Positions 4,363 to 13,323 of a stretch of DNA of 13,323 nucleotides are shown piece after piece; within the stretch, counting starts at the first letter, position 1; every line of letters begins with the position of its first letter. Source of the stretch: a virus. Its lineage: Duplodnaviria > Heunggongvirae > Uroviricota > Caudoviricetes. The stretch lies in IMG/VR virus record IMGVR_UViG_2565956709_000005, positions 1-13,323 of that record. One strand, written 5' to 3'. Made by a program: the position numbers and the translations under genes. The notes under the pieces are model-generated. The model was not told the DNA's origin and made no database searches. It saw nothing but the letters and a program-made list of their open reading frames with translations.

Positions 4363-4927
4363 TATCGCGTCCTCAACAATGAATTTTGTGATGCGGTGCC
4401 TGGTGCCTCCAGGTGACGTTAACCAGTTAACAATTAACGCCGGATACAGAGAATCCACCCATAACACTGTTTTTGGTTTTAACTGTTCCGCGTGCGCTCA
4501 GCCGCATTCACCACATCACAAAATTCACTTTAAAAAGGGCGGCAGAGCAGTCACGGAGTAAAACTGATACCGCCAAACGTCACCAGAAAATTGATAACAG
4601 AGGGCGTTGCAGCGGAGTTGTCACTTAAGCGTATGGTCAACCTGACAACCCGGTGTCCTCAACGGAGGAAGGAATAACCCCGCCATACTTACCGCCGCGC
4701 CATTTCGCGGAGTGCCACAACCGGAAGCGCACGGTCGAACTAAATTTAACGACACCGTACAGAGAGACCAATTTCGCCGTGCGCTTTCGCTTTATGCCCT
4801 GACTTTTCAGGGACATATCCTTTCAGTAAACTGTCAGTGCCGGATGTTCACCCGTGTCCGGCGCACGCACTCCACCTGACCCGTGGAGAACTCCTTAATT
4901 ACCAACCTTAGCTTCGTTGGTTAGCTA

Positions 4928-8138: not shown

Positions 8139-8561
8139 GTGGCAAAAGTTTTTACACAAGAAGAGCGGGAAAAAATTAAAGGGCAGGTTGTTGAACTCGT
8201 ACGCCAGAGTGGGCGCGAGACGTTACGACAACTGGAAACTAAAACTGGGGCAACAAGATATCTGATGAGCGTTCTGGCCAGAGAGCTGGTTGCCAGCGGC
8301 GATGTATACAACTCCGGCTACGGGTTATTCCCCTCTGAACAGGCGCGTAAGGACTGGCAAAACGCCCGCAAAAAACTCTCGAGGGCAAAGGTGAAGAAAC
8401 CTGCTGTGGTTGATCCGGACCTTATCTGGTCATCACCTGACGGAGAAATACGTCGCTACGACAGTCGCCTAAACATAATCTGTCGCGAGTGCCGGAAGAG
8501 TGAAGCTATGCAGCGTGTACTGGCTTTCTATCAGGGTAATTTTCAGGAGGCGGTACTGTGA
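8139..8561 (+). CDS. Hypothetical protein, 140 aa, GTG start
   Basis: AGGAGG lies 4 nt upstream of GTG 8139. The 16-nt ribosome-binding-site module GGTAATTTTCAGGAGG occurs just upstream and again at the gene's 3' end. Confidence 0.55.
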   Translation: MAKVFTQEEREKIKGQVVELVRQSGRETLRQLETKTGATRYLMSVLARELVASGDVYNSGYGLFPSEQARKDWQNARKKLSRAKVKKPAVVDPDLIWSSPDGEIRRYDSRLNIICRECRKSEAMQRVLAFYQGNFQEAVL

Positions 8562-8618
8562 GTGAAATTAGCTATCAGGCTTCAATTACCGCTGGCATTC
8601 GCATCAAAGGAGAGGAGC

Positions 8619-8975
8619 ATGGAAATAAAACCAGAGGATGAGTTAAGCAATATCGTTTTATTTCCGGTAAAAGAGGATGACCCTCGTAATCAGGTTAATT
8701 TTCTTTATGAGCCATCGGAAAGACCATATTGTCATCACGCCTCTGTCCGGGTTGACGAAAAAGAGCGTCAGGTCCGCTGTAAAATCTGCGGTGCAGTTGT
8801 GGAGCCATTTGACTGGATGCTCTCTGTGGCGAAAAGAGAAACCAGACTGGCAGATGATGTAAGGCTCTTGCGTCAAGAGGAGCGGGAAAGGCGAAAAAAT
8901 ATAGAAAAGCTAATTCAGATTGAGCGTAACGCGAAAGCGCGGATACGCAGGGCGACAAAATCCAGAACTGAATAA
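8619..8975 (+). CDS. Hypothetical zinc-ribbon-like protein, 118 aa from ATG 8619 (track version starts at GTG 8562)
   Basis: Strong ribosome-binding site AAGGAGAGGAG directly upstream of ATG 8619. Cys/His cluster YCHHASV...CKICG. Basic coiled-coil-like C-terminus. Confidence 0.55.
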   Translation: MEIKPEDELSNIVLFPVKEDDPRNQVNFLYEPSERPYCHHASVRVDEKERQVRCKICGAVVEPFDWMLSVAKRETRLADDVRLLRQEERERRKNIEKLIQIERNAKARIRRATKSRTE

Positions 8976-9068
8976 TTAAATTTAGCTCTGTTAAAAATTT
9001 AATCCTTAACCGGAGGGATTTCTGCACCCTCAGAACATCAGGAGGCCGCCCGAAAGGGCGGTAGTTAA

Positions 9069-9251
9069 ATGCGAAAGTTTAAAATAATTATTGAAACGGG
9101 AATAGCCGGTGGAGATTTCGAGGATGAATTCGAAGTGGATGATGATGCGACGCCTGATGAAATACATGACGAAGCAAAAGATATTTTCTTTAACTACTGC
9201 AATTACTCATATCACGAAATAAAAGACGAAGAGGAAGAACAAAATGGCTGA
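9069..9251 (+). CDS. Very acidic small protein, 60 aa (20 Asp/Glu against 5 Lys/Arg), unknown function
   Basis: ORF in track. AGGAGG (9040-9045), then a GC hairpin (9046-9061), then ATG 9069. Composition counted by hand. Confidence 0.5.
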   Translation: MRKFKIIIETGIAGGDFEDEFEVDDDATPDEIHDEAKDIFFNYCNYSYHEIKDEEEEQNG

Positions 9252-9420
9252 TTTTGGTTCAACTAAATACAACGTCAGTTTTGAAGAATGGCATGAACTG
9301 TTAATGGACTATGCAGAGTTACGTGGTGGCAGTGCTGCTGATGCTGAAGCATGGCGTGATGATTATGAAGCAGGAAAAACTCCGGTCGAAGCATATTGTG
9401 ATGAGTGGGGCGATGAATGA
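9244..9420 (+). CDS. Acidic small protein, 58 aa (16 Asp/Glu against 4 Lys/Arg); absent from the ORF track
   Basis: Hand-translated: MADFGSTKYNVSFEEWHELLMDYAELRGGSAADAEAWRDDYEAGKTPVEAYCDEWGDE. Start overlaps the upstream stop (ATGGCTGA) and its stop overlaps the next ATG (ATGA). Confidence 0.45.
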   Translation: MADFGSTKYNVSFEEWHELLMDYAELRGGSAADAEAWRDDYEAGKTPVEAYCDEWGDE

Positions 9421-9733
9421 GCGAGGTTAATTATCAGGAAGGGCATGAAACGGCGGGGCAAGCAAAAACAGTGGCATGGCGATATCGCTACGTGAAAAAA
9501 AAGGCGTTACGGACTTTCAGGGGAAGTAGTGGTCTGGTGACTGGAAATATGTACCGAAAAAAGAGGATTGTAACGACAGGCCGAACTATGAAATTCAGGC
9601 CTTATTCACTGCCCCGCCAGTCCCGGTTACATCAGAAGAACTGGTTAAAGCTGTGCACTTTTATGAACAACTAAAACGCGAAAATCCACCAGCATCCGGA
9701 AACCTGATTACAGATTCCCAGATAAGGCAATGA
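9417..9733 (+). pseudogene. Disrupted or recoded gene: translationally coupled start at 9417, A8 run with A_AAA_AAG heptamer, protein-like coding in the -1 frame downstream, in-frame TAG at 9527-9529
   Basis: Frame 0 from 9417 is open to 9674 but its C-terminal half is compositionally odd (K/R-rich). The -1 frame from 9530 to 9733 reads protein-like (WSGDWKYVPKKEDCNDRPNYEIQALFTAPPVPVTSEELVKAVHFYEQLKRENPP...) but has no start codon and follows a TAG. Slippery heptamer at 9497-9503. Confidence 0.3.
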
Positions 9734-10166: not shown

Positions 10167-10221
10167 GACTGCGGGTGCTTGAGGCTATCTGTCTCAGGCA
10201 TGAACACCAAAAGGCAGATAG

Positions 10222-10295
10222 AGAAAAGCCCCAGTTAACATTACGCGTCCTGCAAGACGCTTAACATTAATCTGAGGCCATATCTATGCTCTACA
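10222..10295 (-). ncRNA. sok: Predicted Sok-like antisense RNA covering the mok ribosome-binding site and start codon
   Basis: Inferred from hok-locus architecture. Minus-strand terminator-like structure (hairpin GCGUC...GACGC nested in a GGCCUCAG/CUGGGGCU stem, then UUUUCUCU) ends near 10222. Weak candidate promoter on the minus strand (-35 TTGCCT 10329..10324, -10 TAACCT 10306..10301). Boundaries approximate. Confidence 0.35.
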
Positions 10296-10498
10296 CACGT
10301 AGGTTAGCCTCTTACGTGCCGAAAGGCAAGGAGAAGCAGGCTATGAAGCAGCAAAAGGCGATGCTAATCGCCCTGATCGTCATCTGTTTAACCGTCATAG
10401 TGACGGCACTGGTAACGAGGAAAGACCTCTGCGAGGTACGAATCCGAACCGGCCAGACGGAGGTCGCTGTCTTCACAGCTTACGAACCTGAGGAGTAA
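10286..10498 (+). CDS. mok: Mok-like reading frame (in-frame N-terminal extension of Hok), 70 aa
   Basis: ORF in track. Starts 19 codons upstream of hok in the same frame, an arrangement I recall for MokC/HokC. GAGG lies 8 nt upstream of ATG 10286. Confidence 0.6.
   Translation: MLYTRRLASYVPKGKEKQAMKQQKAMLIALIVICLTVIVTALVTRKDLCEVRIRTGQTEVAVFTAYEPEE
10343..10498 (+). CDS. hok: Hok/Gef-family type I toxin (small membrane-depolarising peptide), 51 aa, HokD/RelF-like
   Basis: Sequence MKQQKAMLIALIVICLTVIVTALVTRKDLCEVRIRTGQTEVAVFTAYEPEE has the Hok/Gef signature (N-terminal transmembrane helix, ...LVTRKDLCEV.IRTG..EVA.F.AYE...). AAGGAG lies 10 nt upstream. Confidence 0.88.
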   Translation: MKQQKAMLIALIVICLTVIVTALVTRKDLCEVRIRTGQTEVAVFTAYEPEE

Positions 10499-12992: not shown

Positions 12993-13323
12993 GGTAATGG
13001 TGCCAACTTACTGATTTAGTGTATGATGGTGTTTTTGAGGTGCTCCCGTGGCTTCCATCTCCATCAGTTGTCCCTCCTGCTCAGCTACTGAAGGCGTGGT
13101 GCGTAACGGTAAAAGTACTGCCGGACATCAGCGCTATCTCTGCTCTCACTGCCGTAAAACATGGCAACTGCAGTTCACTTACACCGCTTCTCAACCCGGT
13201 ACACACCAGAAAATCATTGATATGGCCATGAATGGTGTTGGATGCCGGGCAACCGCCCGCATTATGGGCGTTGGCCTCAACACGATTTTACGTCACTTAA
13301 AAAACTCAGGCCGCAGTCGGTAA
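12993..13323 (+). mobile_element. IS1 insertion sequence, left end and insA, truncated by the window edge
   Basis: Terminal sequence GGTAATGGTGCCAACTTACTGAT at 12993 resembles the IS1 inverted repeat as recalled, followed by a complete insA ORF and the IS1 A6C frameshift motif (13299-13305). Confidence 0.88.
13048..13323 (+). CDS. insA: IS1 InsA (transposition regulator; N-terminal part of the InsAB' frameshift transposase), 91 aa
   Basis: Sequence [43 protein letters not shown]... is recognisable as IS1 InsA. Slippery A AAA AAC lies near the 3' end. Confidence 0.9.

Follow-up and report, generated by a model that had tools for sequence, protein, structure and literature searches.

Anti-restriction genes typically occupy a "first gene in" position. 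Acidic inhibitors that might be compared with the locus reported here are Ocr, ArdA and T7 gp5.9. Of the 116 residues of Ocr, 34 are acidic and 6 basic (PMC3439906), and the Ocr and ArdA dimers are elongated and imitate at least 24 bp of DNA (PMC2806950, PMC2731889). T7 gp5.9, a small and acidic DNA mimic that forms dimers, inhibits both RecBCD and MukBEF; its contacts are tailored to the clefts in which RecBCD and MukE bind DNA (PMC7617805).

Split translation initiation regions offer a separate point of comparison. In the T4 gene 38 leader, a hairpin shortens the gap between the Shine-Dalgarno (SD) sequence and AUG from 22 to 5 nt and enhances initiation experimentally; in gene 25, where initiation is also enhanced, the gap falls from 27 to 11 nt and only close relatives have the arrangement (Nivinskas, Malys et al., reviewed in PMC3014915).

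The locus examined here encodes two small proteins, P1 and P2, within a window of 13,323 nt, by which we mean the whole stretch of DNA analysed. An earlier note on this DNA proposed that the two genes are coupled, that their products are candidate DNA mimics and that they lie behind a structured ribosome-binding site. The reading favoured here, which we hold tentatively and short of even confidence as a whole, is that the locus consists of two accessory cassettes encoding acidic stoichiometric binders, the first of them preceded by a split ribosome-binding site.

Prophage setting and distribution

The window is E. coli prophage DNA, a lambdoid mosaic of the Rac/Qin type. Its gene order begins with an integrase, an 823-aa exonuclease and the ydfD/dicB/DicF/ydfABC region, followed by a cI-like repressor, cro and a YdaT-like gene. 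The middle portion comprises the replisome organiser, DUF977 (a "Ren-like" PHROG), a 137-aa zinc-ribbon protein, P1 and P2, and the window ends with a pseudogene, sok/hokD, DUF968, RusA, an antiterminator and an IS1 copy. P1 and P2 are located in the early-right (post-replication) operon, in a mid-operon position. The presence of DicF and sok (Table 1) with dicB- and ydfA-D-like genes indicates that Qin-type and Rac-type modules are combined in this prophage.

An 851-nt stretch spanning P1 and P2 is found in 2699 of 5426 complete E. coli genomes and is at least 99% identical in 601 records. The stretch is also carried by induced coliphages and by Stx2a phages, ArgO145 among them, where P1 and P2 are placed early-left.

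Several neighbouring features were recorded alongside the two genes. The pair immediately 5' of P1 is uncharacterised: DUF977 belongs to phrog_142, labelled "Ren-like exclusion protein", and the 137-aa protein has a C4 zinc-ribbon motif, belongs to phrog_1621 and has a weak match to the TFIIB zinc ribbon. At the end of the window, the IS1 copy (inverted repeat from about 12995, InsA ORF from 13048) adjoins an antiterminator-like ORF of 185 aa, the counterpart of which is 273 aa long in the otherwise similar locus L001.

Table 1. Features of the P1/P2 locus and its surroundings, in window coordinates.
Feature	Position	Strand	Description
DicF sRNA	4537-4588	-	76.7 bits
DUF977 and 137-aa protein	8139-8975		immediately 5' of P1/P2
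SD AGGAGG for P1	9040-9045	+	23 nt upstream of ATG 9069
Hairpin GCCGCCC-GAAA-GGGCGGU	9045-9062	+	7 bp, GNRA cap, -14.4 kcal/mol (predicted)
P1	9069-9251	+	60 aa, DUF7167, net charge -15, pI 4.05
GAGG SD core for P2	9231-9234	+	duplex -6.0 kcal/mol; 9 nt upstream of P2 ATG
P2	9244-9420	+	58 aa, phrog_519, net charge -12, pI 4.05
Third ORF remnant	9417-9733	+	frameshifted, truncated pseudogene; ATGA overlap with P2
sok antitoxin RNA of hokD	10173-10348	+	117 bits
IS1 copy	12995-13323		

Two conserved acidic proteins

P1 and P2 are real, conserved genes. Both are under purifying selection, with dN/dS against the most divergent close alleles of 0.10 for P1 and 0.03-0.06 for P2. This selection, together with homologues that span Enterobacterales, Pseudomonas and Enterococcus phages and with AlphaFold2 models that reach a pLDDT of 87 for each protein when built from the family alignments, establishes that both genes are genuine.

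P1 belongs to a named domain family. It matches Pfam PF23768 (DUF7167) at 55.1 bits, above the gathering cut-off of 24.4, with residues 2-53 aligned to model positions 1-60 of 60; it also matches phrog_1997 (9e-31) and is deposited in RefSeq as WP_001224662.1, "DUF7167 family protein". An in-frame TAG at 9063-9065, two codons upstream, leaves ATG 9069 as the sole possible start. A profile search places relatives in Klebsiella, Citrobacter, Yersinia and Pseudomonas, and tblastn adds relatives in Klebsiella Guernseyvirinae and Enterococcus Herelleviridae phages. The AlphaFold2 model contains strands at residues 2-8 and 17-23, a helix at 29-43 and a disordered Glu-rich tail, so that the predicted fold is a beta-hairpin packed on an amphipathic helix with the tail behind it.

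P2 belongs to a PHROG family. It matches phrog_519 (E 4.5e-23), covering profile positions 76-137 of 143, has no match in a Pfam search and is annotated in RefSeq as a hypothetical protein (WP_000753060.1). All 35 aligned relatives match phrog_519 only. An exhaustive HMMER search returned about 40 clusters of relatives, 48-99 aa in length, with the common motif F-EW-L-A-GGSAAD-AWR-DY-AGKTP-EAW-DEWG. The model places helices at residues 13-27, 34-42 and 47-55, consistent with a three-helix bundle cored by Trp and Tyr. In P1 the invariant motif FEV-DDAT, and in P2 the aromatic positions, resemble residues of a structural core or helix cap and do not suggest a functional signature.

Two kinds of database entry around P2 call for comment. 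Four matches to proteins of 855-6207 aa in the exhaustive HMMER search were dropped; they look like composition artefacts, given that both of the two inspected are repeat-domain surface proteins. A 127-aa relative, P0192, joins a DUF1187-like N-terminus to P2. Rather than a genuine fusion of domains, this probably reflects a call that crosses the ATGGCTGA junction by frameshift or read-through, and a joined call of this type may be why the phrog_519 profile extends to 143 positions.

The charge counts in the earlier note are exact: P1 has 20 Asp and Glu against 5 Lys and Arg in 60 residues, and P2 has 16 against 4 in 58. With Asp and Glu contents of 33% and 28%, P1 and P2 rank as the top two among 21 plausible window genes, the others ranging from 4 to 21%. 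The median net charge is -12 among 47 P1 relatives and -10 among 35 P2 relatives, and strong negative charge is a conserved trait in both families. Within P1, positions 24-26, 31, 35 and 38 each hold an acidic residue in 90% or more of members; in the predicted structure, these would lie on one helix face and the N-terminal turn.

Independent cassettes

The idea of a functional P1-P2 pair is not supported, as the two families are separate almost everywhere beyond the E. coli/Shigella lineage. Within that lineage, to which adjacency is confined, the arrangement is regular: of the 85 loci where P1 is at least 88% identical, 83 have the P2 start at +175 relative to that of P1. Among divergent relatives, the two families do not co-occur as a two-gene module would. 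In Klebsiella prophages the gene following a divergent DUF7167 gene encodes a Cys-rich protein of 70 aa, in Citrobacter prophages a basic one of 59 aa, in Yersinia prophages a protein of 142 aa and in the metagenome lineage P0174 a Pol III theta homologue; the P2 profile has no match among these four sets of neighbours. In Guernseyvirinae, a DUF2800 nuclease directly follows DUF7167, and the annotated neighbours in Enterococcus phages are also unrelated genes. A link between DUF7167 and exonucleases was considered and rejected, the neighbours being DUF2800/PD-(D/E)XK, ASCH/DUF3850 and Rv2179c-like proteins from unrelated families.

P2 likewise travels alone. Phage records with P2 but no P1 number 198, most of them from Kuttervirus-like or other large virulent phages; P2 also follows gpA in P2-like prophages and is carried by 554 plasmids (516 conjugative; 412 at 80-90% identity). 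Lambdoid prophages and IncI2 plasmids have P2 in common at 88% identity, and the copies in Kuttervirus-like and P2-like phages are more distant. In the one IncI2 plasmid examined (NZ_AP018412.1; L100:1585-1969), the 88% identical copy is preceded by a CaiF/GrlA regulator and DUF1187 and followed by SPFH/NfeD genes; it lies beyond repA, some 15 kb away from mobC and the relaxase gene. There P2 follows DUF1187 with the same 8-nt overlap, ATGGCTGA. The identical junction indicates that P2 brings a stop codon for whichever gene precedes it.

Each gene can also fill the same site. In Citrobacter prophages (L088/L089/L091:4999-5001), P1 starts 2 nt after an Ead/Ea22 gene, and in Enterobacter prophages (L229-L232:3999-4001), it is P2 that starts at this distance behind such a gene. 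Their separate occurrence and this shared slot identify P1 and P2 as independent, interchangeable accessory cassettes. DNA methyltransferase genes are frequent neighbours of P1 and P2 relatives which, with the variable slot, would fit an accessory or counter-defence island.

Overlaps and the third reading frame

Both overlaps described previously are present, ATGGCTGA at 9244-9251 and ATGA at 9417-9420. The start of P2 lies within ATGGCTGA, 5 nt ahead of the P1 stop, which makes translational coupling of P2 to P1 plausible. The SD core of P2 falls inside codons of the P1 Glu-rich tail (GAA-GAG-GAA-GAA).

Coupling through ATGA leads nowhere in this prophage, since the third ORF is a pseudogene remnant. 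As read, it extends over 9417-9674 and would give a basic 85-aa product (pI 11); it contains an A8 run at 9495-9502, and RefSeq flags it as "frameshifted; internal stop" at a 100% identical locus. Family searches with the product return no match except a weak one to phrog_660. The intact gene in this slot varies by phage, being Ead/Ea22 in ArgO145 and DUF551 in others. Identity of the third ORF with the intact Ead/Ea22 gene of ArgO145 was ruled out, as tblastn gives no match.

A hairpin between the Shine-Dalgarno sequence and AUG

The P1 leader contains a perfect SD sequence at an unusual distance. AGGAGG forms the best duplex in the leader with the 3' end of 16S rRNA (-10.3 kcal/mol), yet no start codon lies 5-10 nt downstream of it, and the P1 AUG is too far away for a conventional site. 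The hairpin noted earlier, CCGCCC-GAAA-GGGCGG at 9046-9061, is indeed located between AGGAGG and ATG, and folding adds a G-U pair. Its stem is fully paired in the ensemble, and the centroid fold of the leader retains the hairpin alone; the spacer is unpaired, and the SD sequence and the AUG are largely so. The stem-loop fills 16-18 nt of the 23-nt gap and leaves 6-7 unpaired nucleotides before AUG, within the spacing of about 5-11 nt that such a structure restores in a split initiation region. The hairpin that the earlier note put forward as a possible regulator of initiation is real, and its geometry, in which SD and AUG would be joined, favours enhancement over sequestration of the site.

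The most satisfactory reading makes the hairpin part of a new case of a split ribosome-binding site, in which it probably enhances initiation at P1. Folding would reduce the gap to about 6-7 nt and bring AGGAGG close to the P1 AUG; P2 would then be translated by coupling, from its start just before the P1 stop and its SD core in the P1 Glu codons. T4 genes 38 and 25 share with P1 a distant SD sequence (22 and 27 nt against 23) and a stable hairpin wholly within the gap. As with gene 25, the arrangement is limited to close relatives and absent from distant homologues: distant DUF7167 genes have ordinary SD sequences 4-8 nt upstream. P1 differs from the T4 cases in belonging to a temperate lambdoid phage, in being an unrelated gene, in having mismatched stem variants and in being read from sequence and predicted folding.

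The window is modestly richer than chance in perfect GC-rich 6-bp hairpins, with five overlapping matches, four of them distinct, where dinucleotide shuffles give 1.9 +/- 1.5. A hairpin of this kind is not rare per se; it stands out by its exact fit between a perfect SD sequence and the sole start. The 12 natural stem variants are mostly C-to-U changes that keep G-U pairs, with one compensatory A-U pair and several mismatches; 90.5% of cells are paired, no different from shuffles, and covariation is not significant. In three close copies, a deletion of about 14 nt removes the SD sequence and half of the 5' arm.

The SD sequence, hairpin and spacer travel as a unit with P1 between prophage and Stx-phage contexts, and the Stx-phage cassette junction lies just 5' of CAGGAGG. 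Across the last 70 nt of the leader (8999-9068), 2 positions differ from the Shigella copy L003, against 10 of 31 synonymous sites in P1. Both observations speak for the split-site reading. The near-identity of the leader suggests that its whole length is under constraint or else that recombination had its boundary at the start codon. L003 does not maintain a second predicted stem, GAGGG/CCCTC at about 9014-9032.

An alternative is that the hairpin does not join SD and AUG at all. It might instead limit or regulate initiation, for instance by steric hindrance or by sequestering a cryptic GGGCGG SD sequence in its 3' arm, or it might be an RNA processing or stability element or a weak transcription pause site. 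Once unfolded, the 3' arm GGGCGG could serve as a weak SD sequence, its duplex with the anti-SD reaching -8.2 kcal/mol and its distance from the AUG a canonical 7 nt; the three copies without AGGAGG and half of the 5' arm retain the gene, and the stem lacks significant covariation. However, this alternative leaves a perfect AGGAGG abutting the stem with no start codon of its own, and sequestration sits poorly with the largely unpaired state of both the SD sequence and the AUG. The movement of SD, hairpin and spacer between contexts as one unit also argues against it, as does the lack of a U-tract or a called terminator. On balance, a hairpin that does not bridge the two elements is unlikely, though to be taken seriously. 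Two further identities for the hairpin were rejected: an intrinsic terminator, because no U-tract follows and a terminator scan made no call, and a known RNA family, because Rfam gives no match even at E<=1.

Possible functions of P1 and P2

Searches for a characterised relative were uniformly negative. PADLOC and NCBIfam have no match for either protein, and at E<=10 neither phmmer nor profiles run against all PDB chains recovered Ocr, ArdA or any other characterised protein; homology to an unrelated known structural family, which would have spoken against mimicry, was likewise absent from these PDB searches by sequence and profile. Foldseek with P1 against BFVD returned uncharacterised phage proteins only, and a literature search on DUF7167, the RefSeq accessions and the PHROG identifiers found nothing relevant. 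Neither DUF7167 nor phrog_519 has an assigned function, so family membership says nothing about mechanism.

P1 and P2 most likely act, each alone, as stoichiometric binders, a mode of action proposed with moderate-to-low confidence. Either protein would dock through its acidic surface on a host or defence protein, at a basic and probably nucleic-acid-binding surface, and thereby block that target. Both the inhibitor function and the class of target are inferred; the small phage inhibitors T7 gp5.9, Gp2 and Ocr follow the same general logic, and P1 and P2 are related to none of them.

The earlier note proposed the two proteins as candidate DNA mimics of the Ocr/ArdA kind. Directed against type I RM, BREX or other DNA-targeting defences, possibly jointly, such mimics would account for some of the observations. 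Like Ocr and ArdA, P1 and P2 have an extreme excess of Asp and Glu over Lys and Arg (20:5 and 16:4) and are carried by phages and conjugative elements. Their composition resembles that of Ocr (29% acidic and 5% basic, against 33% and 8% for P1 and 28% and 7% for P2), their acidity is kept across both families, and P2 occurs in conjugative plasmids and virulent phages, the range of elements that carries ArdA and Ocr. The existence of gp5.9, strongly acidic and phage-encoded like P1 and P2, establishes that a small dimeric mimic is feasible (PMC7617805).

With about 52 residues, gp5.9 is also similar in size to P1 and P2. The predicted folds of P1 and P2 match neither gp5.9 (PDB 8B1R) nor Ocr nor ArdA, and neither protein shows homology to these mimics. 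The lack of any sequence, profile or fold match means that DNA mimicry gains no support from structural comparison. Ocr, at 116 aa, and ArdA form elongated dimers, whereas P1 and P2 are 58-60 aa proteins with unrelated folds, modelled as globules of 45-55 residues that are much shorter than the DNA shapes of at least 24 bp presented by Ocr and ArdA dimers (PMC2806950, PMC2731889). Both genes lie in the middle of a delayed-early operon, away from the entering end and unlike the "first gene in" placement of anti-restriction genes, and the two families are linked in one lineage only. What stands of the mimic proposal is that the genes are real, that acidity is family-wide with an Ocr-like composition and that the genes occupy variable accessory slots; the functional pair and the expected position do not. 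Mimicry of the Ocr/ArdA kind is therefore judged improbable. Decaying or spurious ORFs, with acidity as a by-product of composition, are scarcely credible: the downstream coupled ORF is a pseudogene and many database relatives are frameshifted fragments, yet dN/dS values of 0.03-0.10, families kept across genera and phyla with confident folds, and identical copies in hundreds of genomes mean that conservation has effectively refuted this reading already.

A rival reading places P1 and P2 outside defence. They might modulate DNA replication, recombination, cell division or gene regulation in the phage or host, with a replication or recombination protein, or a neighbouring Ead/Ea22-type protein, as a conceivable binding partner. 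The genes come after those for the replisome organiser, DUF977 and the zinc-ribbon protein in the window; elsewhere, relatives have Erf, SSB, Dam and Pol III theta genes around them, come after gpA, or are next to Ead/Ea22, and DUF7167 adjoins nuclease-like genes in some phages. Against this, no single partner gene is conserved, and the "exonuclease" neighbours come from unrelated families. P2 is found in conjugative plasmids and in temperate and virulent phages with very different replication, which argues against a replication-specific partner. A non-defence role is judged less likely than not, though a serious rival, and stoichiometric binding by each protein alone remains the preferred reading. 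A bolder version, for which we see only a slim chance, would make P2 a new family of mini-inhibitors that aids the establishment of incoming mobile DNA. With an acidic surface tailored to it, P2 would block some widespread defence or repair protein that binds DNA, and P1 would be an analogous, interchangeable cassette for a different target.

Implications for mobile elements of E. coli

As it stands, the locus is an ordinary pair of uncharacterised accessory genes, and its novelty is modest, as it adds members to known kinds. The split site, if true, would be a further case of a hairpin that enhances initiation outside the T-even phages. Genes with such sites appear to lack an SD sequence, which makes the example useful for gene-start prediction.

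P1 and P2 are among the commonest uncharacterised E. coli prophage products, the stretch that encodes them being present in about half of complete genomes, and P2 is additionally carried by hundreds of conjugative plasmids. Both are reasonable candidates for anti-defence screens. If either protein inhibits a defence or DNA-repair system, it would be a very small and easily tested tool, and an inhibitor role, if true, would explain part of the spread of these elements.
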